64,000 nucleotides of DNA from Vicinamibacterales bacterium (GCA_036381155.1 DASVDJ010000196.1:52823-116822), one strand, 5' to 3'. Positions 31,529-56,053 are shown, counted from the first letter of the stretch. The notes: generated by a model from the letters alone, not told the origin. Numbers and translations are program-made.

Positions 31529-31544
31529 AGCAACCCGTGTGCCT
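31529..31544 (-). promoter_or_regulatory. Sigma-54-type -24/-12 promoter (P10)
   Basis: Minus strand AGGCACACGGGTTGCT, with GG and GC 10 nt apart. It lies 13 nt upstream of the ATG at 31515. Confidence 0.6.
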
Positions 31545-31563
31545 TCCCAGCCGCCCGTGCGCC

Positions 31564-31599
31564 GCCTGTGACGAGCGACCACACGCGCCTGTGACGAGC
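31564..31599. repeat. Two direct copies of GCCTGTGACGAGC spaced 23 bp (candidate activator sites)
   Basis: The copies are at 31564-31576 and 31587-31599, between the divergent units 31515(-) and 31748(+). Confidence 0.6.
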
Positions 31600-31747
31600 C
31601 GCCGCACGACGTATTTGATTCGCCACGCCAGCGTGTTGGATCGAGCTCGTCCGGCAACGCCGCGAAACCGCTCGTGATACCGGTGGTCACGCGCCGCACG
31701 CCTCTTGCACCGGTCCTGAGGTGACACATCCCCAGGCGAGGGACCAC

Positions 31748-34675
31748 ATGACACGCTTGCGCTTCATCACCGTCGTCCTGCTCCTCGCCCTGCCCGCTCT
31801 GGCGGCGGGACAGGAAACCACGACCGGCTCCATCGGCGGGCTGATCACCGACCCGCAGGGCCTTGCGTTGCCCGGCGTGACGGTCACCGTCACCTCCGCG
31901 CAGGGTGAGCGCTCCGTCGTCACCCAGCCGGATGGCCGTTACTTCGTGCCGTACCTCACGCCGGGCACGTACACCGTGCGCGCCGAGCTGCAGGGCTTCC
32001 GCACGATCGAACAACAGGAGGTCCAGGTCCGGCTCGGCCAGCGGGCGGTGGTCAACCTCACCCTCCAGGTCGGCGCCGTCACGGAGACCGTCCAGGTCAC
32101 GGGCGGATCGCAGGTGGTCGACACGACGAACACCACGGCCGGCACGAACCTGGACAGCGAGACGCTGTCGCGGCTGCCCGTCGGCCGCAGCTTCAGCGAC
32201 ACGCTGTACGTCGCGTCAGGCGTCAGCAGCGGCGGCGGGACCGGCCGGGCCAACCCGTCCGTGTCCGGTGCCAGCGGCCTCGAGAACCTGTACGTCGTCG
32301 ACGGCGTGAACATCACGAATCCCGGCTACGGCGCGCTGGGCTCCTACTCGATCGTCTTCGGCTCACTCGGCACGGGGGTGACGTACGACTTCGTGCAGGA
32401 GGTGCAGGTCAAGACGGCCGGGTACGAAGCCGAGTACGGCCAGTCGACCGGCGGCGTGGTCAACGTCGTCACGAAGAGCGGCACGAACGACCTGCGCGGC
32501 ACCGTGTTCGGCTACTGGCGGCCCGAGCAGCTCGAGGGGGACTTCACGCCGATCCTGACCGAGAACGCGACCCGGCCCGAGAGCGTGAACTTCACCGAGT
32601 CGCGCCTGAGCGACATCGGAGTCGAAATCGGCGGGCCGATCATGCCGGATCGCCTCTTCTTCTTCGGCGCCATCGATCCCCAGTGGGAGCGCACGTCGTT
32701 CATCGCGCCCATCGGGTTCCCGCTGCGTGAGCTCGGCGAACAGCCACGGGATCGACGGATCGTGGCGTACGCCGCCAAGGGCACGTACCAGATCGCGACC
32801 GGGCAGCGGATCGACGCATCGTTCTTCGGCGATCCGGCGAAGGGCGACATGGGCCCGCAGCGCCGCACGGCCCTGCTGCGCACCGACACGGCCGGCTTCA
32901 GCGAGATCGAGTACGGCGGGCACAACCAGGTCGTCCGTTACGACGCGGCCGTGACGCCAAGCTGGCTCGTCGAGGCCTCCTACGCGCGCGCCTTCAACAA
33001 CATCGAAGAGACGCCCTCGGTCGACTCCTGGTCGGTCGTCGACCGCACGGTGACGCCGAACGTGCGCGCGGGCGGCATCGGGTTCTTCGAGGTCGGGAAC
33101 GAGGGCACGAACCACCAGTTCCAGGTCAAGTCGACCAACATCGTCGAGGCAGCCGGCAACCATCAGATCCGGTACGGGCTGCTCTACGAGAAGGTCTTCT
33201 ACGACAACATCATCGACCGCACCGGTCCCGCGTTCACGCTGCCTGACGGCTCCACGACCGTGACCGGCGCCGAGATCGAAGTGCTGCCGGACCCGGTCTT
33301 CGGGCGCATCTACAGCGTCGCGCGCGCGAACCTCTCGAACGTGCGCGAGACCGAACAGGACTACGTCGCGTTCTTCGTGCAGGACGTCTGGCGGATCGGC
33401 ACGCACCTGACGATCCGGCCCGGGATCCGGTACGAGCAGCAGAAGCTGATCGGCAACCTGACGGACCACTCGTGGGACGGCAACTGGGCGCCCCGGATCG
33501 GCGCCGTCTACGACCCGCTGGGGACCGGCCGCATGAAGGTGTACGCGAACTACGGCCGCTTCTTCGCGCGGATTCCGAACGACCTGGCCGCCCGGGCGCT
33601 GTCGGCGGACGCCGGCGTGACCCGCGCCGACTACTTCGACGCCGGACTCACCCAGCCGGTGCCCGACGGCGTGCTGGCGGCCGGGCAGACCGAGCACTTC
33701 ACGCTCGCCGGCCTGGAGCCGTCCGTCATCGATCCGGACTCGAAGTCCACGTACCTGAACGAGTACCTCGCGGGCTTCGAGTGGGAGCCGCTCATCGGAC
33801 TCAGCGTCGGCGTCCGCTACACGCACCGCAACTTCGGCCGCGTGCTCGAGGACGTCGGCACGTTGCCGATGGTGGCGTACTTCCTGCCCGACATCCCCGG
33901 CGCCGACAGCGTGGAGTACTTCATCACGAACCCGGGTCCGGGCACGCCGGTCGCGTCGAACCTGCCGGCCTCGTTCGAAGAGGCCATCCACGACTACGAC
34001 GCCGTGGAGGTCCTCGCGAACAAGCGGTTCGGCAACAACTGGTCGCTCTCGACCTCCTATCGCTGGTCGCGGCTGGAAGGCACGTTCGAGGGCTTCTACC
34101 GGAACGACAACGACCAGTCGGATCCGTCGATCACCTCGCTGTTCGACTTCCCGACCAACGACCCGACCTACACGGCGATCGGCGTCCCGCAGTTCGGCTT
34201 CCGGGGCGACATCCGGTTCCTCGGCGCGCTGGGGGCCGGACCGCTCCCGAACGATCGCCGGCACCAGGGCAAGGTCTTCGGGGCCTACATGTTCCCGTTC
34301 GGCCTGACCGCCGGGCTCGGGATGGTCGTCAACTCGGGCCAGCCGCTGACCGCGCTCGCCGCCAACCCGGCGTATCGCAGCGACGGCGAGATTCCCGAGA
34401 CGCCGCGCGGCACCGGCATCGAGACCCAGGACGGGTTCCGGCGGCGCACGCCGACCGAGATGCAGTTCGACATGCACCTCGATTACGGCCTCCCGATTGC
34501 AGGACGGCGTCTGCGGCTGATCGCGGATGTGTTCAACCTCTTCGATCAGCAGCGGGTGACGGACTACGACAACTACACCGAGAGCACCTTCGGGGCGCTG
34601 AATCCGGACTTCGGCCGGATCATCGAGTATCAGACGCCGCGCCAGGTGCGTATCGGTGCACGCTTCGAGTTCTGA
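31748..34675 (+). CDS. TonB-dependent receptor-like outer membrane protein with N-terminal CarboxypepD_reg domain (Oar-like)
   Basis: Signal MTRLRFITVVLLLALPALAAGQ; GSIGGLITDPQGLALPGVTVTV...PDGRYFVPYLTPGTYTVRAELQGF; plug-like SRLPVGRSFSDTL; C-terminal ...RIGARFEF ending in Phe. Confidence 0.85.
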   Translation: MTRLRFITVVLLLALPALAAGQETTTGSIGGLITDPQGLALPGVTVTVTSAQGERSVVTQPDGRYFVPYLTPGTYTVRAELQGFRTIEQQEVQVRLGQRAVVNLTLQVGAVTETVQVTGGSQVVDTTNTTAGTNLDSETLSRLPVGRSFSDTLYVASGVSSGGGTGRANPSVSGASGLENLYVVDGVNITNPGYGALGSYSIVFGSLGTGVTYDFVQEVQVKTAGYEAEYGQSTGGVVNVVTKSGTNDLRGTVFGYWRPEQLEGDFTPILTENATRPESVNFTESRLSDIGVEIGGPIMPDRLFFFGAIDPQWERTSFIAPIGFPLRELGEQPRDRRIVAYAAKGTYQIATGQRIDASFFGDPAKGDMGPQRRTALLRTDTAGFSEIEYGGHNQVVRYDAAVTPSWLVEASYARAFNNIEETPSVDSWSVVDRTVTPNVRAGGIGFFEVGNEGTNHQFQVKSTNIVEAAGNHQIRYGLLYEKVFYDNIIDRTGPAFTLPDGSTTVTGAEIEVLPDPVFGRIYSVARANLSNVRETEQDYVAFFVQDVWRIGTHLTIRPGIRYEQQKLIGNLTDHSWDGNWAPRIGAVYDPLGTGRMKVYANYGRFFARIPNDLAARALSADAGVTRADYFDAGLTQPVPDGVLAAGQTEHFTLAGLEPSVIDPDSKSTYLNEYLAGFEWEPLIGLSVGVRYTHRNFGRVLEDVGTLPMVAYFLPDIPGADSVEYFITNPGPGTPVASNLPASFEEAIHDYDAVEVLANKRFGNNWSLSTSYRWSRLEGTFEGFYRNDNDQSDPSITSLFDFPTNDPTYTAIGVPQFGFRGDIRFLGALGAGPLPNDRRHQGKVFGAYMFPFGLTAGLGMVVNSGQPLTALAANPAYRSDGEIPETPRGTGIETQDGFRRRTPTEMQFDMHLDYGLPIAGRRLRLIADVFNLFDQQRVTDYDNYTESTFGALNPDFGRIIEYQTPRQVRIGARFEF

Positions 34676-34676
34676 A

Positions 34677-35126
34677 ATGCGACGACTCTGCGGATCACGG
34701 CCGGGACGCGTCGTCCCGGCCGCAGCGCTGGTCCTGGCAGCCGCCCTGTCGGCGGCTGCCGGCGCTCCCGACCCCATCACCGTCCGGCTCCTCCCGGCCA
34801 CGGTGATGGAACACAACGACGTGAAGGCCATGGTGACCGTCGAGGAACGGGCGGAGAACCGGCGCCTGGTCGTTTCGCTGGACGGGCCCGAGTTCTACTC
34901 CAGCACGCAGCGGACGCTCGACGGGAAGAAGGGACCCCGGAGCCACGAGTTCTTCTTCCGCGCCCTGCCCGCCGGCGTGTACGAGCTTCGCGTCACGGTC
35001 GAGGACGACCGGGGGCACACGGCGTCGGTTGCGCGGAACTTCCAGGTCCACGGCATGAGCCAGGAGGAAGAGGTCGTACCCACCGGCCGTCGACGGCGTC
35101 CTCCCGGGCAGCGCTTCCGGCCCTAG
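34677..35126 (+). CDS. Small secreted Ig-like protein, 1 nt after the receptor stop
   Basis: Signal MRRLCGSRPGRVVPAAALVLAAALSAAAG, then beta-rich VRLLPATVMEHNDVKAMVTV...GVYELRVTVEDDRGHTASV. Confidence 0.6.
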   Translation: MRRLCGSRPGRVVPAAALVLAAALSAAAGAPDPITVRLLPATVMEHNDVKAMVTVEERAENRRLVVSLDGPEFYSSTQRTLDGKKGPRSHEFFFRALPAGVYELRVTVEDDRGHTASVARNFQVHGMSQEEEVVPTGRRRRPPGQRFRP

Positions 35127-38100
35127 AAGCCTGGACGGACTCCGAAACTGAACAGCCAGCCGCGGTCGCGGTCGAGCGGCCGTACGGCCGCGAACTCCAG
35201 AACGGCGAAGCCCAGCGCGTTGACGCGCACCCCCGCGCCGGTACTGCGGATCCAGTCGTCACCGAAGGATGGGTTGCGGTCGCCGCTCCAGGCGAAGCCG
35301 GCGTCGAAGAACACCAGCCCCTCCACCGGAACCGGCCCGTACTCGAGCTCGCCGGTGAAGATCCCGACCAGCGGGAAGCGCACCTCGGCGTTGAGGACGG
35401 CGATGCCGTCGCCGAAGAGCCGGTCGACCTCCTGACAGGTGCTGTCCGCCGTCACCGTGCACTCGGAGACGCGGAAGGAATCCCATTCGTACCCGCGCAC
35501 GAGCGTCGGGTAGCCGAGGAACAGCGGCGTCAGGCGGGGGTCGTCGATGTCGCCGCCGAAACGTCCCAGCACGAGGCCGCGCCCGGCAAGCGTCAGCGGA
35601 CGCACGGGCATGTAGTACTGCCGGAAGTCGGCGAGGAGGCTGGTAAAGGTCAGCCCTCCGGCGGTCTGCGTCGCTTCGAGCCGGTAGCGCCGGCCGAGCA
35701 GCGGACTCGTCGGGCCGAAGATGCCGGTGTCGAAGACGAGCGCGGCGCTGGCCTCGGCCATGTTCACCGTGTCGAGCCCGGGAATGTCCTCGCGCGCCTC
35801 GCCGAGGAACTGGCCCGTCGCAAGGTCGAACGCCTGCGAGATCTGCTCGGCGCTGACGCCGATCGACCGCAGGCCACCGGTGAACTCGAACCGCTGCGCG
35901 CGACTGAACGGGTACTCCAGGACCCCTGACACCTGCCGGTAGTACTGCCGGAACTGCGTGATTTCGTCGACGACCGCGGGACGCCCGTCGATCATTTCGA
36001 GGCGCTGGGTCACGAAGCCGCTGCGGTACGAGAGCTGCTCGGCGGTGCCGCCCCACCCGAGGCGCCTCCGGCGATTCAGGTAGGCCAGCTGGCCCGAGAA
36101 GTCGCGGACGTCTCCCTGGATCTGCGCCGTCGCGCCCAGGAGGTGATCGCCGAGCAGATCGCTCCAGAGGAAGGACACGCCGCCGCCGAAATAGGTGCCG
36201 AACGCGTCGGTGCCGACCCCGACCGACGGCTGGCCGACGAACTCGAGCCCGAGGTTCGCCTGGTACGGCCGAACGGGGAACTCCTGCGGCGGCGGCAGGC
36301 CGGCCGTCGCGTTCGCCAGCACCCGCGCCACGTCGCCGTCGTCACGGCGGACCGGCGGCAGCGTCGCCGCGTCTGCACGGGTGTGCGCCGGCAGCTCCAC
36401 CGCCGCCGCATCGTCGAGGAGCATGACCTGGTAGGCGTTGCGCCAGAGCACCGAGAAGGCCACGCGCCCGCTCTTCGACGCGACGGACAGGGCCGGGCTG
36501 TTGTTCGTGATGCCGGTCGCGCCGGTCGCCAGCCGAGAGACCGGCACCACCTGCCCCGAATCGAGGCTCAACCGGAAGACGTCGCTGACGCCCTGCGGCG
36601 CGGCGATGAAGTAGAGCGTCCGGCCGTCGGGGCCCCACTGCGGGTTCATCTGCTTCGCGTCACGGAACGCCTCGGGCAGGGGCACGGGCCGGATCTCGCG
36701 CGTCCGGACATCCATGATGGCGAGCTTCAGCGGCCCGAACGTCAACGTCTTCAGGTCCGAGGAGAACCGCTCCGTCGCAAAGGCGATGTGCCGGCCGTCC
36801 GGCGACCAGGCCGGCTGCTGATCCGACAGCAGATCCCGTGTGACCCGCGTCAGCGTCTCGCTCTCGAACTCGTACAGGTACAGGTCGGTGACGCCACCCT
36901 GGATGGCGGAAAATGCCACGACCTTGCCATCGGGCGACAGCGCGGGGTGGAAGATCTCACCGAGCTCCCGGAGCCGGACATCCTCGACGGTGTCGCCGCT
37001 CTCGACGTCGACGACGGTGATGTGAGGCTGCCCGCGCTGGATGGACGAGAACGCGAACCGCCGGCCTTCGCCGTCCCACGAACCGGACGCGTTCACGAAC
37101 TGGAGGCTGTCGAGGTGCGGGTTGGTCGCGGAGCGCGACAGGCGGCGGATGATGCGGCCCGTGTCGGCCTCGGCCAGGTACAGGTCGATCGACAGGCGCG
37201 AGCGCGACGACAGGAACATCAGGCGGCGTCCATCAGGGCTCAGCGACGGGGCCACCGTGATCTCATCCTCGCTCTGGTCGGGATTGAGCGGCCGTCCCGC
37301 CTCGAGCGGCGGCCGGCGCGCCTGGATGATCCCGCCGTACGCCTCCCGGATGGCCGCATGCCACTGGTTGGAGAGCTCCTCTTCTTCGATCCCGGTCAAC
37401 CGCTCGAGGACGTCAATCGGATCGCCGGACACGGCCAGCCGGTACGCGTCTCCGACGATCCGGTCGCCCCACCGCCCGGCCAGATAGGACCAGAGCGCGT
37501 GGCCGTAGCGATACGGGAAGAACTCGGGGCGGGACAGCTGCGAGATGCGCGGCAGGTTCTCGTTCAGCATCGCGTCGCGCAGCCACATGGCGGTGTGCGG
37601 GTCGAACGGCCCGATTGAGAGGTACTCCGCCATTCCCTCGACGAACCACAGCGGCAGGTGCAGCCCGCGCGTCCGCGTGTTGGCCGCGATGTCGAACTGG
37701 AAGGCGTGCACGAGCTCGTGGCCGATCACGTGATCGGTGTCGGCCCCGCTGGCCCCGAACGGCAGGACGATGCGGCGCCGCAGCGCCTCGGTGAGCCCGC
37801 CGGTGCCCTCGCCGATCATCCCCTGGACGACGTTCGTCTGCTGGAAATGGGGGTGGCTGGCGTAGAGGATCAGCGGCTGGCGGCTCGACAGCTCGTGATC
37901 CAGCACGGCCGACAGCCGCATGTACCAGCGCTCGGCCATGCGGGCGGCATCGCGCGCCGCATCTACTTCCTTCTCGTAGTGGTAGATGTCGAAACGTTCG
38001 GTCTCCAGCACCTTGAAGTCGAACGTCTCGTAGCGGACCTTGTTGGGACCGAAGTACTGCGCGGAGGCGCCCGCGGACAATCCGAACCAGAGTGCGACCA

Positions 38101-38143
38101 GCAGGCCCGCGCGGGCCCACCAAGCGGTTCCGCCCGACCTCAT
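35123..38143 (-). CDS. Outer-membrane fusion protein: HExxH metallopeptidase-like domain + TolB/PD40-type beta-propeller + Omp85-like C-terminal barrel
   Basis: Signal peptide. HVIGHELVHAFQF (HExxH). PD40-like SPDGRRLMFLS, SPDGKVVAFSA, SPDGRHIAFAT, GPDGRTLYFIA. C-terminus ...GWLFSFGVRPGF ends in Phe. SD GGAGGGAG. Confidence 0.8.
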   Translation of the reverse strand: MRSGGTAWWARAGLLVALWFGLSAGASAQYFGPNKVRYETFDFKVLETERFDIYHYEKEVDAARDAARMAERWYMRLSAVLDHELSSRQPLILYASHPHFQQTNVVQGMIGEGTGGLTEALRRRIVLPFGASGADTDHVIGHELVHAFQFDIAANTRTRGLHLPLWFVEGMAEYLSIGPFDPHTAMWLRDAMLNENLPRISQLSRPEFFPYRYGHALWSYLAGRWGDRIVGDAYRLAVSGDPIDVLERLTGIEEEELSNQWHAAIREAYGGIIQARRPPLEAGRPLNPDQSEDEITVAPSLSPDGRRLMFLSSRSRLSIDLYLAEADTGRIIRRLSRSATNPHLDSLQFVNASGSWDGEGRRFAFSSIQRGQPHITVVDVESGDTVEDVRLRELGEIFHPALSPDGKVVAFSAIQGGVTDLYLYEFESETLTRVTRDLLSDQQPAWSPDGRHIAFATERFSSDLKTLTFGPLKLAIMDVRTREIRPVPLPEAFRDAKQMNPQWGPDGRTLYFIAAPQGVSDVFRLSLDSGQVVPVSRLATGATGITNNSPALSVASKSGRVAFSVLWRNAYQVMLLDDAAAVELPAHTRADAATLPPVRRDDGDVARVLANATAGLPPPQEFPVRPYQANLGLEFVGQPSVGVGTDAFGTYFGGGVSFLWSDLLGDHLLGATAQIQGDVRDFSGQLAYLNRRRRLGWGGTAEQLSYRSGFVTQRLEMIDGRPAVVDEITQFRQYYRQVSGVLEYPFSRAQRFEFTGGLRSIGVSAEQISQAFDLATGQFLGEAREDIPGLDTVNMAEASAALVFDTGIFGPTSPLLGRRYRLEATQTAGGLTFTSLLADFRQYYMPVRPLTLAGRGLVLGRFGGDIDDPRLTPLFLGYPTLVRGYEWDSFRVSECTVTADSTCQEVDRLFGDGIAVLNAEVRFPLVGIFTGELEYGPVPVEGLVFFDAGFAWSGDRNPSFGDDWIRSTGAGVRVNALGFAVLEFAAVRPLDRDRGWLFSFGVRPGF

Positions 38144-38177
38144 CAGAGCTCCCTCCGCGCAGTACCGGACGCAGCCG

Positions 38178-38438
38178 TCAGACGGTACGGCGGCGCCCGA
38201 CTACCATCCGGTAGATGCCGAGCAGCACCACGGCCCCGAGCAGCGACATCAGGAAGCCCGCAGCGTCATCCGGCCCGTAGAGCCCCAGCGCGCGGCCGAT
38301 GTAGCCCCCCACGACCGCCCCGACAATGCCCAGCAGGATCGTCACGATGATACCGCCGGGATCCCTGCCGGGCATCACGAGCTTCGCGATGGCGCCGACG
38401 ATGAGCCCGAAGATGATCCAGCCGATGATGCCGAACAT
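38178..38438 (-). CDS. GlsB/YeaQ/YmgE (transglycosylase-associated) family stress membrane protein
   Basis: MFGIIGWIIFGLIVGAIAKLVMPGRDPGGIIVTILLGIVGAVVGGYIG: family-typical sequence. Confidence 0.85.
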   Translation of the reverse strand: MFGIIGWIIFGLIVGAIAKLVMPGRDPGGIIVTILLGIVGAVVGGYIGRALGLYGPDDAAGFLMSLLGAVVLLGIYRMVVGRRRTV

Positions 38439-38490
38439 AGGCCCCTCCTGCTTGCCGGTCCCCCACGGACCGGACGTCCGTCAGACGCTG

Positions 38491-38506
38491 AGCAACCGCC
38501 GTGCCG
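38491..38506 (-). promoter_or_regulatory. Sigma-54-type -24/-12 promoter (P1)
   Basis: Minus strand CGGCACGGCGGTTGCT (near-consensus GGCACG-N4-TTGCT). It lies 52 nt upstream of the ATG at 38438. Confidence 0.7.
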
Positions 38507-38566
38507 CCGCACGGTGCCGTCCTGTCGACCCGGGGACGCCGCCGTTGTCGGCTTCCGCGACAGACG

Positions 38567-39085
38567 TCACGGGGCGGACAGTTGCAGCGTCAGCCAGAGC
38601 ACACCAGGCAGCGTCTCGAAATGCCCCGATCGGATCCAGGAGGTGAACACCCGGGCGTCGCCCTCGGGCGCAAGCTCGGCCAGCCAGACGAGAACCTGCC
38701 GGCCGGACAGGATGACTCCGCGCGGGAGCGGGAGCCCGAGCGTGCCAGCGAGCTGCGCCGCGGATCCTGCCAGCCCGGACGCGACCTCCGCGACGACGGT
38801 CGGCCCGGGGTCAAACGCGAGCTCCGGATGGAGGAAGAGGGGAACGGTGAAGGGGGGCAGCCAGCGCGGCTGTGCGATCGCGACGCGCACGTCGATGCGG
38901 TTCGACGCGCCGACGGCGATCCCGATCGATCGCACGTATCGCTCGTGCCGCGCCGCAACCGCCGCGGCGATCTGATTGAGCACGGCGTCCGAGAACGGCA
39001 CCCGAAGCTCGAGCTGGGCGCCAGGGAAGTCCCGGAAGGTGCTGGCCCGCCACAGCTCGAGCAATCGGGTGATCTCGGGCGTCAC
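38567..39085 (-). CDS. Hypothetical protein (172 aa)
   Basis: Ordinary amino-acid composition, overlaps the upstream gene by 4 nt (operon). No motif recognised. Confidence 0.6.
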   Translation of the reverse strand: MTPEITRLLELWRASTFRDFPGAQLELRVPFSDAVLNQIAAAVAARHERYVRSIGIAVGASNRIDVRVAIAQPRWLPPFTVPLFLHPELAFDPGPTVVAEVASGLAGSAAQLAGTLGLPLPRGVILSGRQVLVWLAELAPEGDARVFTSWIRSGHFETLPGVLWLTLQLSAP

Positions 39086-49177: not shown

Positions 49178-50352
49178 TGCGGCCGACGCTGGCCTTCTTC
49201 GGATCGAGTCTGGTGTCCGCGTACTGGAACGGCGCCGCCACGTACTACCGCGGCATCCTCCGCGCGCTGGACACGCGCGGATGGCGCGCGACCTTCTTCG
49301 AGCCGGACGCCTTTGGACGGCAGGCCCATCGCGACATCCCCGATCCGTCGTGGGCGCGCGTCCTGGTGTACCAGCCGACACCTGACGGACTGCAGCGCGC
49401 GCTCGATGAAGCCGCGAGTGCCGACGTCCTGGTCAAGGCGAGCGGCGTCGGCGTCTTCGATGCCGAGCTCGAGGCCGCTCTGCCGGCCATGCGCCGGCCC
49501 GGGCAGATCTGCCTCTTCTGGGACGTCGACGCGCCCGCGACGCTGGAGCGGCTGGACCGGACACCGGACGACCCGCTCCGCGCCCGGATTCCGTCGTTCG
49601 ATCTCGTGCTGACGTACGGCGGCGGCCCGCCGGTGGTGGCACTGTACCGCGCGCTCGGCGCTCGCGACTGCGTGCCCATCTACAACGCCCTGGATCCGGA
49701 CACCCACCATCCGGTCCCGCCGCACGACGCCTATCGCGCCGACCTGGCGTTCCTCGGCAACCGCCTGCCCGATCGCGAGGAGCGGGTGCGCGAGTTCTTC
49801 CTCTCGGCGGCGGCCGCGCGGCCGGCCCGCTCGTTCCTGCTTGGCGGCAACGGCTGGCACCCGGACGACGTGCCTCCGAACGTGACCGTGCTCGGGCACG
49901 TGCCGACGGCCGCGCACAACACGTTCAACTGCTCGCCGCTCGCCGTGCTGAACATCAACCGCTCCAGCATGGCGCGGATCGGCTTCTCGCCGGCCACACG
50001 CGTGTTCGAGGCGGCAGGGGCCGGCGCCTGTCTCGTCACCGATGCGTTCGAGGGTGTCGAGGCGTTCCTCTCGCCCGGCGAGGAGATTCTCGTCGCGGAC
50101 AGCGGCGCCGACGTGATCGGTCTCCTCGACGCGCTCACGCCGGAGCGCGCCCGGGCCATCGGGCGCGCCGCGCGCGCCCGCGTGCTGGCCGCGCACACGT
50201 ACGAACACCGGGTCGTCCAGCTCGAACGCGTGCTGGACGCCGCACTCACCGGATCGCCTCGATGCAGCCAACGCTCCGCTTCGTCTTTCTCGGCCTCTCC
50301 GTCACGTCCTCGTGGGGAAACGGCCACGCCACGACGTACCGCGGCCTCGTAA
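49177..50352 (+). CDS. CgeB-like glycosyltransferase paralog 2
   Basis: MRPTLAFFGSSLVSAYWNGAATYYRGIL; RVFEAAGAGACLVTDAFEGVEAFLSPGEEILVA. The 3' end overlaps the next gene by 91 nt. Confidence 0.75.
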   Translation: MRPTLAFFGSSLVSAYWNGAATYYRGILRALDTRGWRATFFEPDAFGRQAHRDIPDPSWARVLVYQPTPDGLQRALDEAASADVLVKASGVGVFDAELEAALPAMRRPGQICLFWDVDAPATLERLDRTPDDPLRARIPSFDLVLTYGGGPPVVALYRALGARDCVPIYNALDPDTHHPVPPHDAYRADLAFLGNRLPDREERVREFFLSAAAARPARSFLLGGNGWHPDDVPPNVTVLGHVPTAAHNTFNCSPLAVLNINRSSMARIGFSPATRVFEAAGAGACLVTDAFEGVEAFLSPGEEILVADSGADVIGLLDALTPERARAIGRAARARVLAAHTYEHRVVQLERVLDAALTGSPRCSQRSASSFSASPSRPRGETATPRRTAAS

Positions 50353-51461
50353 CCGCCCTGGCACGGCGCGGACACGACGTGCTCTTCCTCGAGCGCGACG
50401 CGCCGTGGTACGCGCGGCACCGTGATCTGACGGAGCTGGCCGGCGCCCGCGTCGAGCTGTACGGATCGGTCGTCGATCTCCGCCGCCGGTTCACCAGGGA
50501 GATCCAGCGCGCGCACATCGTCGTGGTCGGGTCGTACGTGCCGGAAGGGCGCCGGGTCGGGCGCTGGGTGCGGGCGGCGGCGCGCGGCATCGTTGCCTTC
50601 TACGACATCGACACGCCGGTGACGCTCGCGACGCTCGAGACGGATCGCTGTGAGTACCTGTCGCGGCGCCTGCTGCCTGCCTACGACCTGTACCTGTCCT
50701 TCAGCGGCGGCCCCGCGCTCCGCCGGCTCAACCGGCTCGGCGCACGCATGGTCCGTCCGCTGTACTGCGCGGTCGATCCAGCGCAGTACCTGCCGGCCGG
50801 CGGGCCTTCCGCGTGGGACCTGGGCTATCTCGGCACGTACGCCGCGGATCGGCAGCCCGCGCTCGAGTCGCTGCTGCTCCGGGTCGCGGACGGCTGGCCC
50901 GACGGGCGCTTCGTGGTCGGCGGTCCGCTGTATCCGCCCGACATCCACTGGCCCGCGAACGTGGAGCGCACCGAGCATGTCCCGCCGGCGGATCACAGCC
51001 GCTTCTACGGCCGCCAGCGGTTCACGCTGAACCTGACGCGCGCCGACATGCGCCGGCTCGGACACTCCCCGAGCGTCCGGCTGTTCGAAGCCGCGGCGTG
51101 CGGCGCCGCCATCCTGACCGATGACTGGAGCGGGCTCGACGAGTTCTTCACGCCCGGCATCGACCTGGTCCGCGTGCGATCCGCGCGCGACGTCGTCGAG
51201 GCACTGCGTGACATGCCCGAAGAGCGGCGCGTCGCGCTCGGGTGCTCGGCGCGGGCGCGCGTGCTGGCCGCCCACACGGCCGACGACCGCGCGCGAAGGC
51301 TCGAAGAGTACGCGTTCGAGCTGCTCGAGACCCGGGCGGTCGCGTCCCGGGCGGCCGACATGTCCCGCGGGCGGCCGCGCCGACGCTCGCAGCCGCCCGC
51401 GCGACCACGAGTCGCGGCCGTGCAGCGGCAGCTCGGAATTGACGAGGACCTCACGGCATGA
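50262..51461 (+). CDS. CgeB-like glycosyltransferase paralog 3
   Basis: MQPTLRFVFLGLSVTSSWGNGHATTYRGL; RLFEAAACGAAILTDDWSGLDEFFTPGIDLVRV. Confidence 0.75.
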   Translation: MQPTLRFVFLGLSVTSSWGNGHATTYRGLVTALARRGHDVLFLERDAPWYARHRDLTELAGARVELYGSVVDLRRRFTREIQRAHIVVVGSYVPEGRRVGRWVRAAARGIVAFYDIDTPVTLATLETDRCEYLSRRLLPAYDLYLSFSGGPALRRLNRLGARMVRPLYCAVDPAQYLPAGGPSAWDLGYLGTYAADRQPALESLLLRVADGWPDGRFVVGGPLYPPDIHWPANVERTEHVPPADHSRFYGRQRFTLNLTRADMRRLGHSPSVRLFEAAACGAAILTDDWSGLDEFFTPGIDLVRVRSARDVVEALRDMPEERRVALGCSARARVLAAHTADDRARRLEEYAFELLETRAVASRAADMSRGRPRRRSQPPARPRVAAVQRQLGIDEDLTA

Positions 51462-52411
51462 TGCGCGCGGCGGTCCTCACCGGCGACGGCGGCGTGACGC
51501 TGACGCGCTGTGCCCCTCCCGAGCCCGGTCCGGGCCAGCTGCGCGTGCGGCTCGAAGGGTCGGGTGTCTGCGGCTCCAATCTGCCGGTCTGGGAAGGGCG
51601 ACCGTGGTTCGAGTATCCCCGCCCGCCCGGATCTCCGGGCCACGAGGGCTGGGGCGTCGTCGATGCCGCGGGACCGGGCACGGAGTCGACCCTGGTGGGC
51701 CGCCGGGTCGCGCTGCTCTCCGAACATGCGTTCGCGGAGTGGGATCTCGCGCCGCCGTCGGCCGTCGTGCCCGTCCCGGACGCGCTGGCCGGGCGCGCCT
51801 GTCCTGCCGAGCCGCTGGCCTGCGCAGTGAACGTCATGCACCGCGCCGCCATCCACGACGGCGACGTCGTCGTCGTGCTCGGCGTCGGGTTTCTCGGGGC
51901 GTCGCTGGTGGCGCTGGCGTCGAGCGCGGGGGCCCGGGTCGTCGCCGCGTCGCGCCGGCCGTTCGCGCGCCGGCTGGCGTCGCAGCTTGGTGCGGCGCAC
52001 GTCTGTCCGCTCGAGCACGACGCGCTCGTGAACGCCGTCGCGGCGCTGTCGGGCGGCCAGCTTGCCGACTGCGTGATCGAGGCGGCCGGCACCCAGGAGA
52101 CGCTCGATCTGGGCGGTGAGCTGACGCGCGTGCGCGGACGGCTCGTCGTCGCCGGCTATCACCAGGACGGCCCGCGCCTCGTCAACCTGCAGCTCTGGAA
52201 CTGGCGCGGGATCGACGTGGTCAACGCGCACGAACGCGACGAGGCGGTGTACGTCGAGGGGATGCGGCAGGCCCTGGCGCTCGCGGCCGACGGCGTCCTG
52301 CCGCTCGATCTGCTGATCACGCACGTCCTCCCGCTCGACGGCATCGACCAGGCATTCCACCTCATGGCGGAACGCCCGGATGGCTTCCTGAAGGCTGTTG
52401 TCGTCTGTTGA
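51458..52411 (+). CDS. Zinc-dependent MDR-family alcohol/polyol dehydrogenase
   Basis: GVCGSNLPVWEG...PGHEGWGVV (GHE zinc site)...VVVLGVGFLG (Rossmann). Confidence 0.8.
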   Translation: MMRAAVLTGDGGVTLTRCAPPEPGPGQLRVRLEGSGVCGSNLPVWEGRPWFEYPRPPGSPGHEGWGVVDAAGPGTESTLVGRRVALLSEHAFAEWDLAPPSAVVPVPDALAGRACPAEPLACAVNVMHRAAIHDGDVVVVLGVGFLGASLVALASSAGARVVAASRRPFARRLASQLGAAHVCPLEHDALVNAVAALSGGQLADCVIEAAGTQETLDLGGELTRVRGRLVVAGYHQDGPRLVNLQLWNWRGIDVVNAHERDEAVYVEGMRQALALAADGVLPLDLLITHVLPLDGIDQAFHLMAERPDGFLKAVVVC

Positions 52412-53484
52412 GTCCCATGGGGTCCGCCACCGCATCCCGCCCACGGCCGAGACTCGGGTTTCTCGGTCTCGGCTGGATCGGCCGTCACCGCCTCGAGTGC
52501 GTCGCCGCCGCCCGGACCGCGGAGATCGCGGCGCTCGCCGATGCCGACCGCCATGCGCTGTCCGATGCGCAGCGGCTCGTCCCGGGCGCCGTCTGCGCGC
52601 GCTCGCTCGAAGCGCTGCTCGGTCGGGCGGACCAGCTCGACGGCCTCGTCATCGCGACGCCCAGCGCCGGGCACGCCCCCGAGACTGCGGCCGCGCTCGA
52701 CGCCGGGCTCGCCGTCTTCTGCCAGAAGCCGCTCGGACGCACCGCGGCCGAAGCGAGTCGGGTCGTCGAGATCGCGCGGCAGCGTAATCGGCTGCTCGAC
52801 GTCGATCTCGGCTACCGGCACCTCGCGGCCACGCAGGCCGTGCGGAATTCGCTCGAGGCCGGTGAACTGGGCGACATCGTCGCCGTGGACCTCACCTTCC
52901 ACAACGCCTACGGCCCCGACAAGCCGTGGTACTACGACCGGACACTCTCGGGAGGCGGCTGTCTGATCGACCTCGGCGTCCATCTGATCGACCTGCTCCA
53001 TGTCCTCACCGGACGGCGTGCCTGGCGCGTCACCGCTGCGGCGCTCTTCGCGAGCGGCCGGCGCTGGACGCGCGATTCGGAGGCGGTCGAAGACCTCGCG
53101 ATCGCGCAGCTGGATCACGCCTCCGGCATGGCAGCACGCCTGGCCTGCTCGTGGCGTTTGCCAGCCGGATGCGACGCGGTGATCGAGTGGACGGTGCAGG
53201 GCACGACGTCCGCCGCGCGGGTGCGCAACGTCGGCGGGTCGTTCTACGACTTCACCGCCGAGCGGCTCGATCGCGGCCGGCTCCGGACGCTCGTGCAGCC
53301 GCCCGACGCGTGGGGCGGGCGGGCCCTGCTGGACTGGACCGCACGCCTTGCTGAAGGAAACCGCTTCGATCCGCGGGCAGACCGGCTTGTCGACCTCGCG
53401 GCCGCGATCGACGCGATCTACGACGCGGCCACACCGTCCGCCGGGGTCGGCCCGCCAGCCGGGTCACGCGTGGTCAGCGCCTGA
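52408..53484 (+). CDS. Gfo/Idh/MocA family oxidoreductase
   Basis: RLGFLGLGWIGRHR (N-terminal Rossmann), VFCQKPL (EKP-like motif), GGGCLIDLGVHLIDL. Confidence 0.8.
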   Translation: MSPMGSATASRPRPRLGFLGLGWIGRHRLECVAAARTAEIAALADADRHALSDAQRLVPGAVCARSLEALLGRADQLDGLVIATPSAGHAPETAAALDAGLAVFCQKPLGRTAAEASRVVEIARQRNRLLDVDLGYRHLAATQAVRNSLEAGELGDIVAVDLTFHNAYGPDKPWYYDRTLSGGGCLIDLGVHLIDLLHVLTGRRAWRVTAAALFASGRRWTRDSEAVEDLAIAQLDHASGMAARLACSWRLPAGCDAVIEWTVQGTTSAARVRNVGGSFYDFTAERLDRGRLRTLVQPPDAWGGRALLDWTARLAEGNRFDPRADRLVDLAAAIDAIYDAATPSAGVGPPAGSRVVSA

Positions 53485-54542
53485 TTCGCGCGCGCCCAGG
53501 AGAGCAGGCGTTCGAGCGCCGCCGCGCGATGCCGCGCCGTGTGCCCGGCCAGGACACGCGCCCGCGCCGCTTCCGCGATCCGGCGCCGCCGGCGGGGCGG
53601 CATGTCCAACGCTGCCAGCACCTCGTCACACCCGGCCGCCGTCACGATTTCTTCGCCGGCCGTGAAGAACTCCTCCAGACCGGGCCAGACATCGGTGACG
53701 ATCGCGGCCTCGCAGGCGGCGCCCTCGAACAGTCGGCCGGATGGACAGTGCCCCATCGCCGCCATCGGCCCGCGGGTGACGTTGATCGTCCATCGCGACG
53801 AGGCGTACAGCGCCGGATGCCGCGCGGGCGACAGGTGCGGCACGGTGCGCAGACCCGGACGCGCCGCGACGTCCGGCGGATACAGCGCGCCGGCCAGCAG
53901 CAGCCGCAGTGAGGGCCGCCGCTCGCCGGGGACCAGGAACAGCTCGCGCAGGCCCGCGAGCCGATCGGCCGCGTAGGTGCCCAGATGTGAGAGGTCGCAG
54001 CGGAGCCACCGTTCCGGGCGGCCGGGTCTGTAAGCGTCCGCGTCGACGAAGCCCGGGAGCGCCGCCGTCGCGCGCGCGCCGAGACGCCGCTCGAGCGCAG
54101 CCAGCGCCGGTCCACCGGCATAGCTCAGTACCAGATTGAACCGTCCGAGGCCGCCTGCGGGCACGTAGTCGACGCGCTCACCGGTGTCGAGCCGCGCGAG
54201 CGTCACGGGCGTGTCGAGGTCGTAGAAGACGCGCAGCGCGTCGGCCTGCTCCATCGCGGCGACGGCTGCCTCCGCATCAGGACAGTACGACGTGACGATG
54301 GCGGCATCGGTTTCCGCGAGGACCTGCAGGGCGCGACGGGGGTTCCAGGCGTCGTACAGGACAAGCGTGCCCCACGGCAGTTCGACGAGGTCGCGATGAT
54401 CGGCGTAGTACGGAACGTTCCGTTCGAAGAAGGTGACCTGATGCCCACGCTCGGCCAGCGCACGGATCAGCGCGCGCCACAGCGTCGCGTGGCCGTTGCC
54501 CCAGGAGGAGCTGACGGTCAGCCCGAAGACGGCGAGCCGCAT
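53418..54542 (-). CDS. CgeB-like glycosyltransferase paralog 4 (opposite strand)
   Basis: MRLAVFGLTVSSSWGNGHATLWRALIRAL; RLFEGAACEAAIVTDVWPGLEEFFTAGEEIVTA. Its 3' end overlaps the convergent oxidoreductase gene by 67 nt. Confidence 0.75.
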   Translation of the reverse strand: MRLAVFGLTVSSSWGNGHATLWRALIRALAERGHQVTFFERNVPYYADHRDLVELPWGTLVLYDAWNPRRALQVLAETDAAIVTSYCPDAEAAVAAMEQADALRVFYDLDTPVTLARLDTGERVDYVPAGGLGRFNLVLSYAGGPALAALERRLGARATAALPGFVDADAYRPGRPERWLRCDLSHLGTYAADRLAGLRELFLVPGERRPSLRLLLAGALYPPDVAARPGLRTVPHLSPARHPALYASSRWTINVTRGPMAAMGHCPSGRLFEGAACEAAIVTDVWPGLEEFFTAGEEIVTAAGCDEVLAALDMPPRRRRRIAEAARARVLAGHTARHRAAALERLLSWARANQALTTRDPAGGPTPADGVAAS

Positions 54543-54556: not shown

Positions 54557-54901
54557 TCAGCGGGACGCCTGCAGCGGCTCGTCCTCGTCCTCCTCGTCCT
54601 CGTCGTCGTAATCGTCTTCGTCCTCTTCGTCTTCCCAGCCGCCGTCATCCTCCTCGTCGTCGCTCTCCTCCTCCTCCTCCTCGTTCTCGTCGTCCTCCTC
54701 GTCCTCGAGGTCGTCGTCGTCCAGCTCGTCGTCGTCATCGGGGTCCGCGAGCCGCACGCGTCGGTACTCGACCGAAGCCGAATCGTCTGGCATGCCGGCG
54801 CTCCACAGGGCGCAGACACAGCGATCGCCTGCGACAGCGCCCGGAGCCGACAGCCGTGTCATCAGGTCCGCGACATCGATCGACAGTCCGTGTGGTGCCA
54901 T
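54557..54901 (-). CDS. 114-aa protein with an extreme poly-Asp/Glu C-terminal tail
   Basis: MAPHGLSIDVADLMTRLSAPGAVAGDRCVCALWSAGMPDDSASVEYRRVRLA, then DPDDDDELDDDDLEDEEDDENEEEEEESDDEEDDGGWEDEEDEDDYDDEDEEDEDE. By my count 47 of 56 tail residues are D/E. Confidence 0.6.
   Translation of the reverse strand: MAPHGLSIDVADLMTRLSAPGAVAGDRCVCALWSAGMPDDSASVEYRRVRLADPDDDDELDDDDLEDEEDDENEEEEEESDDEEDDGGWEDEEDEDDYDDEDEEDEDEPLQASR
54578..54745 (-). repeat. Low-complexity GAC/GAG/GAA codon tract encoding the acidic tail
   Basis: The plus strand shows runs of gtcctc/gtcgtc/ctcctc. Confidence 0.8.
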
Positions 54902-54927
54902 GGCTTCTCTCGAGTTGGCGCCGGGAA

Positions 54928-55806
54928 TCACGCGGCGCGGGTTTCACCGCCGAGGAGCGTCAGGACTTCGCCCGTGACGAAACTGGAGTCCGCGGGCGAG
55001 GCGAAGAACACGTACGCCGGCGCAATCTCCTCGGGCTGCGCCGGCCGTTCGAGCGGTGTCTTCTGGCCGAACGTCGCAACCTGCGCCGCGGGCTTGTCGG
55101 CCACGTTGAGCGGCGTCCAGACCGGACCCGGTGACACGCAGTTCACGCGAATGCCGCGCTCCACAAGGCTCCGGGCAAGCGACTTCGTGAAGGCGTGGAT
55201 GGCGCCCTTCGTAGCCGAGTAGTCGAGCAGCTGCGGATTGCCTTCGAGCCCCGTGATCGAGCCGGTGTTGATGATCACGCTTCCCGGACGCAAATGGGAC
55301 AGGGCGGCGCGGGCCATGTAGAAGTAGCCGTAGATGTTGGTCCGGAAGGTCCGGTCCCACTGCGCGTCGTCGATGGCCTCGGGCCGCTCCTGTCGATGCT
55401 GGTACGCGGCGTTGTTCACGAGGATGTCGAGGTGTCCGAACGCGGCGACCGTCTGCTCCACGGCGTCCCGGCAGAACGCCGACTCGCGCACGTCGCCCGC
55501 GATCCGGATGGCGCGGCGTCCTTCCCGCTCCACCGCGGCGACGGTCTCGTCCGCATCGGACTGCTCCTCGGGCAGGTGGACGATTGCGACGTCAGCCCCT
55601 TCACGGGCGAACAGCACGGCGACGGCGCGCCCGATGCCGGAATCGCCTCCCGTGATCAGGCCGACCTTGCCGTCCAGCTTTCCGGACCCGGCATAGCGCG
55701 GCGCCTCGTACCGCGGGCGGGGCTCGATTCGGCTCTCCAGCCCGGGCCGCTCCTGCGCCTGCTCGGGGAATGGCGGCTTCGGCTGCGGCGCGCCCGTCTC
55801 GGCCAT
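54928..55806 (-). CDS. SDR-family oxidoreductase of the YghA/YhxC general-stress type
   Basis: GKVGLITGGDSGIGRAVA (TGxxxGIG), NNAA, YSATKGA (YxxxK), and the long N-terminal PKPPFPEQ...PRY extension typical of this subgroup. Confidence 0.85.
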   Translation of the reverse strand: MAETGAPQPKPPFPEQAQERPGLESRIEPRPRYEAPRYAGSGKLDGKVGLITGGDSGIGRAVAVLFAREGADVAIVHLPEEQSDADETVAAVEREGRRAIRIAGDVRESAFCRDAVEQTVAAFGHLDILVNNAAYQHRQERPEAIDDAQWDRTFRTNIYGYFYMARAALSHLRPGSVIINTGSITGLEGNPQLLDYSATKGAIHAFTKSLARSLVERGIRVNCVSPGPVWTPLNVADKPAAQVATFGQKTPLERPAQPEEIAPAYVFFASPADSSFVTGEVLTLLGGETRAA

Positions 55807-55893
55807 GACACTCCTCTCTCCGCTTCAAGGGCTCTCCGGATGGCGGCCCATCGGCGTGCCGCTACCCGGTCTTCGGCCCTGCCGGCCCGGCGG

Positions 55894-55909
55894 TGCAAGA
55901 GAGTTGCCG
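55894..55909 (-). promoter_or_regulatory. Sigma-54-type -24/-12 promoter (P5)
   Basis: Minus strand CGGCAACTCTCTTGCA. It lies 87 nt upstream of the ATG at 55806. Confidence 0.6.
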
Positions 55910-56037
55910 CCTCCGTCCGACGTGTTCGCGCGATGGCCGTCATTTGGGCGTGGAGCGATTTGTACATGCCGTTCCGAAAGCCAACAGCGCCATCCAGCGC
56001 GGCCTTGCCCGGGGCCGACGAGGCGCGCGGAACGGCC

Positions 56038-56053
56038 GTTGCAACCCGGGCCG
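56038..56053 (+). promoter_or_regulatory. Sigma-54-type -24/-12 promoter (P6)
   Basis: CGGAACGGCCGTTGCA. It lies 50 nt upstream of the ATG at 56104. Confidence 0.6.

Follow-up and report, generated by a model that had tools for sequence, protein, structure and literature searches.

Putative sigma-54-type (-24/-12) promoters clustered before stress, envelope and glycan genes in a Vicinamibacterales bacterium

Gene content and motifs of the 31-56 kb block

The window analysed here is a 64,000-nt stretch of DNA, whose source is an uncultured soil Acidobacterium of the order Vicinamibacterales. One group of its transcription units between 31 and 56 kb (Table 1) belongs to a widely conserved, uncharacterised sugar/glycan cassette, made up of a TIGR04290 methyltransferase (score above the family cut-off), a glycoside-hydrolase-like protein, a nucleotidyltransferase (nucleotidyltransferase-like gene within the cassette at 43/80 loci), a histidine phosphatase, epimerases, a GT4 and CgeB-like glycosyltransferases. 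The other units are of stress or envelope type, encoding GlsB and a PD40/Omp85 fusion, anchored hydrophilic and small hydrophilic proteins, an SDR and a SnoaL-like protein. The glycan operon encodes two NDP-sugar epimerase/dehydratases, a GT4, three CgeB-like glycosyltransferases, a Zn-ADH and a GFO/IDH/MocA oxidoreductase, and a weak 127-aa ORF (53529-53912) may also be a member. Between the orthologs of the 171-aa and 172-aa genes of the P2 unit, the corresponding operon of the relative L082 contains genes with Phage_holin_3_6 and DUF3618 matches.

A first-pass annotation had reported ten intergenic 16-mers of -24/-12 type in this block. Direct inspection of the window confirmed the coordinates and strand of nine of them exactly; the tenth is genuine but lies 10 nt to the left of the reported 56038-56053 (P9, Table 1). 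The other stated properties were reproduced on recounting: GG and GC are separated by 10 nt at all ten sites, TTGC[AT] occupies -12 at nine (the exception being TCGCT at 40405-40420), and every site faces the neighbouring start codon at a distance of 11-87 nt. Each site matches 9-11 of the 12 specified positions of TGGCAC-N5-TTGC[AT]. Across 33 sites from the window and its relatives, the -12 element reads T (33/33), T (31/33), G (33/33), C (33/33) and A/T (33/33), with A at -21 in 26/33, C at -20 in 20/33, and A (17) or C (13) at -22. Four or five sites carry GGAAC at -24 instead of the canonical GGCAC, and one carries GGTCC. The intergenic status of the sites is supported by the gene starts: the methyltransferase ATG at 44388 agrees with a 257-aa database protein, the NTP-transferase and histidine phosphatase domains start at residues 5-6 of the short gene models, and the SnoaL gene and its ortholog differ by a 1-nt indel 5' of the ATG.

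Table 1. Putative promoters, the units they precede and candidate regulatory features, with positions counted from the first letter of the window
Feature	Position	Strand	Sequence or match	Start codon	Orthologous sites in relatives
P1, -24/-12 promoter	38491-38506	-	CGGCACGGCGGTTGCT	52 nt downstream	L082 11961 CGGCACGTCGGTTGCT
P1 unit	glsB 38178-38438; PD40/Omp85 fusion 35123-38143		Pfam Transgly_assoc, PD40, Omp85		
P2, -24/-12 promoter	40405-40420	-	TGGCATGCCGTTCGCT	ATG 27 nt downstream	L082 9240 TGGCACACCGTTCGCT
P2 unit	171-aa C-terminally anchored protein 39862-40377; 239-aa protein 39082-39801; 172-aa protein 38567-39085				
P3, -24/-12 promoter	41390-41405	-	CGGCAGCTCCCTTGCA	ATG 68 nt downstream	L082 8270 CGGCAGCAGCTTTGCA
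P3 unit, sugar-1-phosphate nucleotidyltransferase-like	40509-41321		NTP_transferase		
P4, -24/-12 promoter	41407-41422	+	AGGAACCGGCCTTGCA	GTG 11 nt downstream, leaderless geometry	L082 8205-8220(-) CGGAACTCTGTTTGCA; L089 16000-16015(-), upstream of His_Phos_1
P4 unit, histidine phosphatase	41434-42069		His_Phos_1		
P5, -24/-12 promoter	42698-42713	-	TGGTCCTGTGCTTGCA		L082 6898 and L083 2815, TGGCCTGTGCATTGCA (protein orthologs 82% and 57% identity)
P5 unit, small proteins	94 aa 42372-42656; 82 aa 42102-42350				
P6, -24/-12 promoter	44418-44433	-	CGGAACGTCGATTGCA		Conserved in L082, L084, L088, L089, L091, L043
P6 unit	methyltransferase 43615-44388; glycoside-hydrolase-like 296-aa protein 42732-43622		TIGR04290		
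P7, -24/-12 promoter	44678-44693	+	TGGAACATACGTTGCA		Identical or near-identical in L082, L084, L088, L089, L091, L043
P7 unit, glycan operon	44744-53484	+	Pfam		
P8, -24/-12 promoter	55894-55909	-	CGGCAACTCTCTTGCA		L092 3432 CGGCAGACCTCTTGCA; L093 9290 CGGCAACTCTCTTGCA
P8 unit	SDR 54928-55806; acidic 124-aa protein 54557-54931; CgeB-like glycosyltransferase 53418-54542				
P9, -24/-12 promoter	56028-56043	+	CGGAACGGCCGTTGCA		L092 3301-3316(-) CGGAACATCCGTTGCA; L093 9153-9168(-) CGGAACGTGCATTGCA
P9 unit, 70-aa hydrophilic protein	56104-56316				
P10, -24/-12 promoter	31529-31544	-	AGGCACACGGGTTGCT	ATG 13 nt downstream, leaderless geometry	L094/L095 AGGTACGCGAGTTGCT, then 12 nt, then ATG
P10 unit, SnoaL-like protein with N-terminal membrane segment	30784-31515		SnoaL_2		
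Candidate enhancer (UAS), methyltransferase/glycan divergent pair	44480-44507	-	GAACAGC-CC-TGTCA-GGGATGC-GAACAAC		L082 5073-5098 and L089 7301-7326 orthologous; L088, L091 degenerate
Central block between divergent P8/P9	55970-55986	-	TGTTGGCTTTCGGAACG		Invariant in L092, L093
Sigma-54 activator (bEBP), ~1141 aa	8972-12397	-	Sigma54_activat (AAA+), HTH_8	Uncertain	

Spacing, matrix ranking and conservation of the motif

In a sequence of 71% G+C, motifs of this kind could be chance products picked by eye from the AT-richer gaps. Mononucleotide composition predicts ~11 occurrences of GG-N8-TTGC[AT] in 128 kb, against 13 observed on both strands of the window, and generic consensus scoring returns many 9/12 matches in coding DNA. 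However, the true background, as estimated by placing GG at the other spacings (k = 0 to 40), is 0-11 matches with a mean of 3.8 (Poisson P(>=13) ~2e-4); of just 40 TTGC[AT] occurrences in the window, 13 are preceded by GG at a distance of exactly 8 nt. Furthermore, 9 of the 13 matches fall in the ~9% of the sequence that is non-coding. The four further matches (6780-, 30250+, 34486+ and 38571+), which is about background level, are all coding according to GC3 gene calls, in keeping with the earlier statement that such motifs are lacking from the gaps left of 31 kb and right of 56.1 kb.

When scored with a log-odds matrix derived from the relatives' sites alone, all ten sites ranked inside the top 13 matches of the window. 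Against this, two equally strong matrix matches lie inside genes (30250+ and 34486+).

All ten sites recur in the orthologous gap of at least one collinear relative (45-89% protein identity; L082, L084, L088, L089, L091, L043, L092, L093 and L094) with the flanking DNA randomised, bearing out the expected conservation. In 20 pairwise comparisons, identity was 73% at the non-core positions of the 16-mer and 31% in ungapped flanks; the core is 100% conserved, although pattern-based location of the orthologous sites accounts for part of this figure. A match was present in the orthologous gap in 20/20 comparisons, at an estimated chance rate of ~0.006 per gap from the spacing background. The two motifs are the sole conserved blocks in alignments of the methyltransferase/glycan gap, and in the SDR/70-aa gap two motifs and one central block are conserved. 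The motif is missing from the 300 nt upstream of the methyltransferase in 74/80 distant-phylum loci, and thus it is not a by-product of this gene; among the six motif-bearing loci is L043, an Acidobacteria relative that also has a cassette bEBP. The enriched spacing, the high ranking by the relatives' matrix and the recurrence in orthologous gaps show that the motif is not an effect of composition, and the chance explanation is refuted by the spacing control and conservation.

Sigma factor type, candidate activators and enhancers

The canonical sigma-54 (RpoN) promoter has the consensus TGGCACG-N4-TTGCW. The window motifs agree with it in their invariant GG/GC spacing, TTGC[AT] at -12 and proximity to start codons, as well as in the presence of a GAFTGA activator in the genome and the lack of -35/-10 elements. 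They depart from the consensus in that A is roughly as frequent as C at -22 (GGAAC), either C or T precedes GG where T is canonical, two promoters would yield near-leaderless mRNAs, and ten promoters in 25 kb is an unusually high density. A search of 38000-45000 on either strand for sigma-70-like promoters (-35/-10 hexamers with a 16-18 nt spacer) returned none, consistent with the earlier view that these are not -35/-10 promoters.

GGAAC is also the classic ECF -35 element, and the motif could instead be bound by an ECF sigma factor reading it as such, or by a dimeric transcription factor. GGAAC is present in four or five sites, the window encodes an ECF sigma factor and zf-HC2 anti-sigma pair (5954-7563), the glycan site is compatible with a relaxed GGAAC-N18-GTT pattern (44679-44704), and a 7-nt inverted repeat (TGCAAGG-N19-CCTTGCA) spans P3/P4. 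However, the strict ECF/EcfG pattern (GGAAC, 16-17 nt, CGTT) is found at 0/10 sites, and the relaxed pattern at just one, where it is absent in L082 and L084. The conserved part is GG-N10-GC with TTGC[AT], the sigma-54 signature; P3 and P4 are 49 nt apart in L082, so they are not a fixed palindrome; and in relatives the cassette is accompanied by bEBP genes. We regard binding by a factor other than sigma-54 as very unlikely.

The spacing enrichment, relatives' matrix, conservation and bEBP genes support the sigma-54 architecture proposed in the first-pass annotation well, and the ten motifs are, judged from sequence, very probably sigma-54-dependent core promoters of this Vicinamibacterales (Acidobacteriota) genome, serving several enhancer-specific modules. 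Sigma-54 RNA polymerase would bind GG(-24)/TTGC(-12) as a closed complex, to be opened by upstream-bound, ATP-hydrolysing bEBPs, and transcription would start ~11 nt past the 16-mer. Eight units would then have ordinary leaders with a Shine-Dalgarno sequence, and the histidine phosphatase and SnoaL-like gene near-leaderless mRNAs. Against this reading, P3 and P4 lie immediately next to each other in divergent orientation, so that two holoenzymes would clash there, and their enhancers would have to sit inside genes.

The previously reported activator was recovered (Table 1), with an intact GAFTGA at residue 903 and no Pfam match in its 800-aa N-terminal region. Its presence points to sigma-54 use by the genome, and it is a candidate regulator of the ten promoters. 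In L088, L089, L091 and L043, bEBP genes orthologous to each other directly adjoin the methyltransferase/glycan cassette, those of L088 and L089 having their own -24/-12 motif in front. The window bEBP was rejected as an ortholog of these proteins, to which it is ~40% identical, compared with 68% identity among themselves. A search covering the window and 1.65 Mb of fetched loci detected no ORF with an RpoN box; RpoN is present in 3/3 Acidobacteria genomes surveyed elsewhere (PMC3372290).

The candidate UAS at 44480-44507 lies 47-74 nt upstream of the P6 -24 element, occurs once in the window and may be bound by a bEBP. The central block between P8 and P9, likewise with one occurrence in the window, may represent a shared enhancer or a second promoter. 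Conserved candidate enhancers are thus present in two gaps, and a k-mer search of the upstream regions found none for the other promoters. A tandem 23-nt repeat is located at 31563-31608.

Regulatory organisation and relation to known systems

The first-pass annotation placed all ten promoters in one regulon, which would put a general-stress/desiccation programme under a single activator, for example that at 8972-12397. Several points would fit such a regulon: the ten promoters crowd into 25 kb of a window that otherwise has none, their genes share a stress/envelope/glycan flavour, the window encodes a bEBP, and the cassette is EcfG-wired in Alphaproteobacteria. Nevertheless, the upstream regions have no k-mer in common beyond shuffled controls, the two conserved candidate enhancers are dissimilar and neither occurs a second time in the window, the dedicated cassette bEBP of the relatives is non-orthologous to the window bEBP, and the latter lies 19 kb off among housekeeping genes. 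Because every sigma-54 promoter needs an activator, dependence on a common sigma factor is not enough to define a regulon. Control by a single activator appears improbable, and a dense sigma-54 'sigmulon' of several enhancer-specific modules describes the block best.

Sigma-54 targets in Myxococcus include surface glycans. In Myxococcus xanthus, sigma-54/bEBP cascades (Nla28, Nla6, ActB and MrpB) drive a starvation programme leading to stress-resistant spores, and examples of Myxococcus sigma-54 promoters have been tabulated (PMC9765219). The present system is similar in its many sigma-54 promoters, several dedicated bEBPs and stress-resistance-linked targets (PMC9765219), and in bEBP genes with sigma-54 promoters of their own (here L088 and L089). 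It differs in belonging to another phylum with no sign of sporulation or development, in promoters that are predicted from sequence, and in their intergenic position, whereas those of Myxococcus are mostly intragenic. Sigma-54 has also been called the 'central controller of the bacterial exterior', with established control of exopolysaccharide, lipopolysaccharide and the envelope (Francke et al. 2011, PMC3162934). Exopolysaccharide/glycan synthesis, outer membrane and envelope genes are targets here too; in contrast, the small hydrophilic, GlsB, SDR and SnoaL-like targets are elsewhere of general-stress-sigma type, and the word 'Acidobacteria' appears nowhere in the main text of that paper. 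In the light of the Myxococcus cascades and the bacterial-exterior theme, the claim that such a programme had not been described was overstated: the promoter type is well known, and the controlled gene set is new for the phylum.

It is conceivable, and we propose it only tentatively, that in Vicinamibacteria-like Acidobacteriota sigma-54 and a few dedicated activators have replaced EcfG, SigB or RpoS in driving a stress, desiccation or dormancy programme, partly via leaderless transcripts, that includes the phylum-spanning cassette (inositol-linked in Alphaproteobacteria). If so, different phyla would drive the cassette with different sigma factors (EcfG or sigma-54), a naturally occurring case of one sigma factor displacing another. 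The alphaproteobacterial general stress response uses sigma-EcfG promoters of the form GGAAC-N16/17-CGTT (PMC6599016), and we found EcfG-type motifs at the operon starts of the cassette (methyltransferase, GH-like protein, nucleotidyltransferase, histidine phosphatase and CgeB-like glycosyltransferases) in at least 13 alphaproteobacterial loci. The two systems have in common this cassette and gene classes typical of EcfG regulons; they differ in sigma family and in the predicted use here of ATP-dependent activators with no anti-sigma partner switch, and the likeness is one of functional analogy, not of membership. The presence of EcfG-type promoters in the same cassette indirectly supports a stress-related character for these genes and suggests a sigma-factor swap between phyla, which is new here.

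Ten candidate sigma-54 promoters and their spacing

By every feature tested, the ten 16-mers (P1–P10) proposed as -24/-12 elements in the first-pass annotation are predicted to be ordinary sigma-54 promoters. Nine lie exactly where they had been placed; the tenth, given as 56038-56053, is actually at 56028-56043(+). Generic consensus-match scoring gave no discrimination in the 71 % G+C DNA of the window and was dropped in favour of a spacing control and a log-odds matrix. For the former, GG-N(k)-TTGC[AT] was tallied for k=0..40 on both strands of the window, returning 13 matches at k=8 and from 0 to 11 at each other value of k (mean 3.8; Poisson P ~2e-4). TTGC[AT] itself is rare (40 in 128 kb, both strands), and one third of its occurrences carry GG at the exact sigma-54 distance. 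The k=8 matches comprise nine of the proposed sites and four others (6780-, 30250+, 34486+ and 38571+), all four coding by our gene calls and close to background in number. The matrix was trained on the relatives' sites alone and is thus independent of the window, where its scan ranked all ten sites among the top 13 matches.

Genes were called from third-position G+C (GC3), and starts were then corrected using Pfam, NCBIfam and orthologs. Four sites fell within ORFs in the first GC3 calls; this placement was ruled out, as homology and ortholog comparison showed the ORF starts to be too long. Each site is oriented toward its adjacent start codon, 11-87 nt downstream, with a Shine-Dalgarno sequence in between in 8/10. 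The SDR of the P8 unit belongs to subfamily NF005214, while a Pfam search at E<=1 returned nothing useful for the small proteins of the block.

Alternative readings were checked for sigma-70, ECF and a P3/P4 palindrome (list headed by ALTERNATIVES). No sigma-70-like promoter was found in 38-45 kb. An ECF reading of GGAAC was rejected, since none of the ten sites has a strict GGAAC-N16/17-CGTT and the lone relaxed match is not conserved. The nucleotidyltransferase and histidine phosphatase promoters (P3 and P4) abut and are palindrome-like in the window but stand 49 nt apart in the relative L082, and are therefore independent units rather than a fixed palindrome.

Several sites show individual features. 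P4 and the SnoaL-like promoter P10 have a short promoter-start gap (41422-41434 and 31515-31529, respectively) without a Shine-Dalgarno sequence, and this leaderless-type geometry is kept in orthologs (L094 900-930, L089 15985-16015, L091 14950-14967), with gaps of 11-16 nt overall; sigma-54 transcripts from such promoters would be essentially leaderless. The glycan operon promoter P7 carries a second copy of its -12 half directly upstream (44665-44693(+); gCATACGTTGCg TGGAACATACGTTGCA), a duplication absent in L082. Two strong sigma-54-like matches are intragenic: 30250-30265(+) (TGGCATCCAGGTTGCT), antisense inside gene 29276-30616, and 34486-34501(+) (CGGCCTCCCGATTGCA), in the 3′ end of a TonB-type receptor and 175 nt upstream of a 149-aa gene at 34677. 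These may be chance matches, or they may be promoters within genes such as have been reported in Myxococcus.

Features of the window and of comparison loci (L numbers)
Feature	Locus	Position	Strand	Remarks
Housekeeping region	window	1-31 kb		shikimate and chorismate enzymes, def/fmt, rsmB, rpe, BamD-like, others; also ECF sigma/anti-sigma pair and 1141-aa sigma-54 activator
Genes served by P1–P10	window	31-56 kb		genes at issue
Right-hand region	window	56.4-64 kb		YtxH/DUF948-like genes, mlaDEF, uvrB; by synteny with L092, L093
zf-HC2 anti-sigma factor	window	5954-6817	-	overlaps ECF sigma gene; pair spans 5954-7563
ECF sigma factor	window	6814-7563	-	Sigma70_r2/r4_2, Sigma70_ECF
Sigma-54 activator (bEBP)	window	8972-12397	-	Sigma54_activat, AAA_lid_14, HTH_8; GAFTGA at residue 903
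Cassette stretch	window	40509-53484
Candidate enhancer GAACAGC-CC-TGTCA-N7-GAACAAC	window	44480-44507		orthologous copies in L082, L089; unique in each locus
Conserved block TGTTGGCTTTCGGAACG	window	55970-55986	-	invariant in L092, L093; single occurrence in window
Cassette-linked bEBP	L088	10911-12023
Cassette-linked bEBP	L089	9282-10688		receiver domain
Cassette-linked bEBP	L043	11268-12614
Cassette-linked bEBP	L091	11770-13117		frameshift near 12988; only 46-aa HTH_8 fragment called
MIPS gene	L077	6392-7486		further examples in L034, L005, L020, L033
EcfG-type motifs, cassette operon starts	L034, L046, L062, L066, L077	6292, 6323, 6300, 6315, 6321 (in this order)
EcfG-type motifs, cassette operon starts	L005, L020, L033	6307 + 13077, 6269, 3648 (in this order)
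EcfG-type motifs, cassette operon starts	L007, L056, L019	8004, 8188, 9211-9235 (in this order)	- (L019)

Conservation at orthologous gaps

Relatives were gathered via the methyltransferase, the SDR and the SnoaL-like protein, and all ten motifs (10/10) are present at orthologous gaps. L082 is collinear with 35-49 kb of the window (protein identity 45-86 %), and L092 and L093 with 49-59 kb (60-92 %). L082 retains seven of the ten motifs; the methyltransferase and glycan promoters are kept in six lineages (L082, L084, L088, L089, L091 and L043), the SDR and 70-aa protein promoters (P8 and P9) in L092 and L093, and the SnoaL promoter in L094 and L095. Outside its core, the 16-mer has ten positions; over 20 pairwise comparisons these were 73 % identical, versus 31 % at 60 flanking positions, the latter being about the chance expectation for 70 % G+C DNA. 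Core identity was 100 %, partly by construction, since orthologous sites were located by pattern; from the spacing background, we estimate the chance of any match at ~0.006 per 200-nt gap. In multiple alignments of the methyltransferase/glycan gap, nothing but the motifs forms an invariant block; in the SDR/70-aa gap, they make up two of three such blocks.

A profile search of genome contigs with the methyltransferase returned distant phyla only, and these loci (L001-L080) provided a negative control as well as the material for analysing the cassette and EcfG-type motifs. The motif is missing from the 300 nt upstream of the methyltransferase gene in 74/80 of these loci from other phyla. One of the six motif-bearing control loci, L043, is an Acidobacteria relative with a cassette-linked activator too.

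The SDR unit has its two closest relatives in L092 and L093, and both have a BON-domain (OsmY-like) gene (3507-4094 and 9630-9986, respectively) inserted downstream of the conserved sigma-54 promoter, ahead of the SDR gene; the window is without this insertion.

Activators and upstream elements

The GAFTGA activator named in the first-pass annotation is present in the window. It is unusually long (~1141 aa), with an 800-residue Ala/Arg-rich N-terminal region without a Pfam match, and follows a TPR protein to the right of the ECF sigma/anti-sigma pair. A GG-less look-alike of the motif (TGTCCCGCTTCTTGCA, 12410-12425(-)) lies 12 nt before its ATG.

In relatives, another bEBP, not that of the window, is encoded directly after the methyltransferase/GH-like pair, and this physical linkage independently supports sigma-54 dependence of the cassette. 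The L088 and L089 proteins are 68 % identical to each other and each only ~40 % to the window bEBP, and their genes are themselves preceded by a -24/-12 motif. The L091 gene, from a Vicinamibacterales MAG, is either a pseudogene or misassembled at the frameshift. A six-frame search of all fetched DNA found no RpoN box; RpoN occurs in all three Acidobacteria genomes surveyed (PMC3372290).

The single regulon proposed for all ten promoters found no support. A search for an upstream enhancer element (UAS) common to all of them was negative, their upstream regions sharing no k-mer beyond shuffled controls, and the conserved elements, at 44480-44507 and 55970-55986, are locus-specific, each at an enhancer-like distance (~70-100 nt) from predicted start sites. 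We therefore regard the block as clustered sigma-54 promoters served by several distinct candidate enhancers. The conserved block in the SDR gap reaches to about 55950 (CTGTTGGCTTTCGGAACG...AC.A.TC) and lies halfway between the two divergent promoters (SDR and 70-aa). It may be an enhancer serving both, or another promoter, perhaps ECF-like; the block has no match upstream of the window's ECF sigma gene and no second copy. Immediately upstream of the P10 (SnoaL) -24 element, a 23-nt sequence occurs twice in tandem and in direct orientation (31563-31608; CGCCTGTGACGAGCGACCACACG, second copy 87 % identical), with nothing comparable evident upstream of the L094 ortholog.

The TIGR04290 cassette and its probable sigma factors

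The protein at 43615-44388(-) is 100 % identical to the database entry 'TIGR04290 family methyltransferase [Vicinamibacterales bacterium]', a family that no paper in our literature search mentions; this match places the window in an uncultured Acidobacteriota MAG. The cassette around it recurs in most of 80 loci from Alphaproteobacteria, Acidobacteriota, Myxococcota, Verrucomicrobiota, Bacteroidota and others. Within 10 kb of the methyltransferase, these loci encode the GH-like 296-aa protein (66/80), CgeB-like (69) and GT4 (46) glycosyltransferases, epimerases (41-45), the nucleotidyltransferase (43; 55-65 % identity) and the histidine phosphatase (30). Four of the ten units thus constitute one conserved module.

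The EcfG-type sequence GGAAC-N16/17-CGTT, the consensus of PMC6599016, is enriched in the 80 loci, with 27 and 19 matches versus ~10 at other spacings. Approximately 39/80 loci, mostly alphaproteobacterial, encode a myo-inositol-1-phosphate synthase (MIPS, PF01658) in the cassette region, in many cases directly upstream of the histidine phosphatase gene; 12/39 have an EcfG-type motif 46-98 nt upstream of the MIPS gene (158 nt in one weaker case), and in other loci the motif is directly upstream of the epimerase operon. This suggests that the alphaproteobacterial cassette belongs to the general stress regulon, so that it looks wired to the general-stress sigma factor there versus sigma-54 here. 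By inference, these EcfG-type motifs support the stress role suggested for the block in the first-pass annotation; for the GlsB plus PD40/Omp85, anchored or small hydrophilic, SDR and SnoaL-like units, functions are putative.

The suggestion that such a programme had not been described was too broad. Envelope and exopolysaccharide genes are under sigma-54 control in general, like the theme here (PMC3162934), and in Myxococcus multi-bEBP sigma-54 cascades run a starvation programme leading to stress-resistant spores (PMC9765219). Sigma-54 promoters of Acidobacteria were not described in any paper that the literature search turned up. New are the lineage, the density (ten promoters in 25 kb) and the probable rewiring of a widespread cassette from EcfG to sigma-54. 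Because the promoter class is textbook, the advance lies in regulon content and evolution, not mechanism. Vicinamibacteria-class Acidobacteria are abundant in dry soils and hard to culture, and we know of no gene-regulation circuits described for them. The ten conserved promoters offer the phylum a sigma-54 network concrete enough to be tested, and in two phyla a very widespread TIGR04290-anchored cassette appears to be under stress-type regulation, by a different and unrelated sigma factor in each. Confirmation would make this a case of a stress module passing from ECF control by partner switching to ATP-dependent enhancer control, and would yield candidates for sensor-activators and for a protective glycan or solute in soil drought survival. 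No MIPS gene is present in the window or in the loci of close relatives; its occurrence in the ~39 loci hints that the cassette product may be an inositol-linked or inositol-derived sugar or solute.
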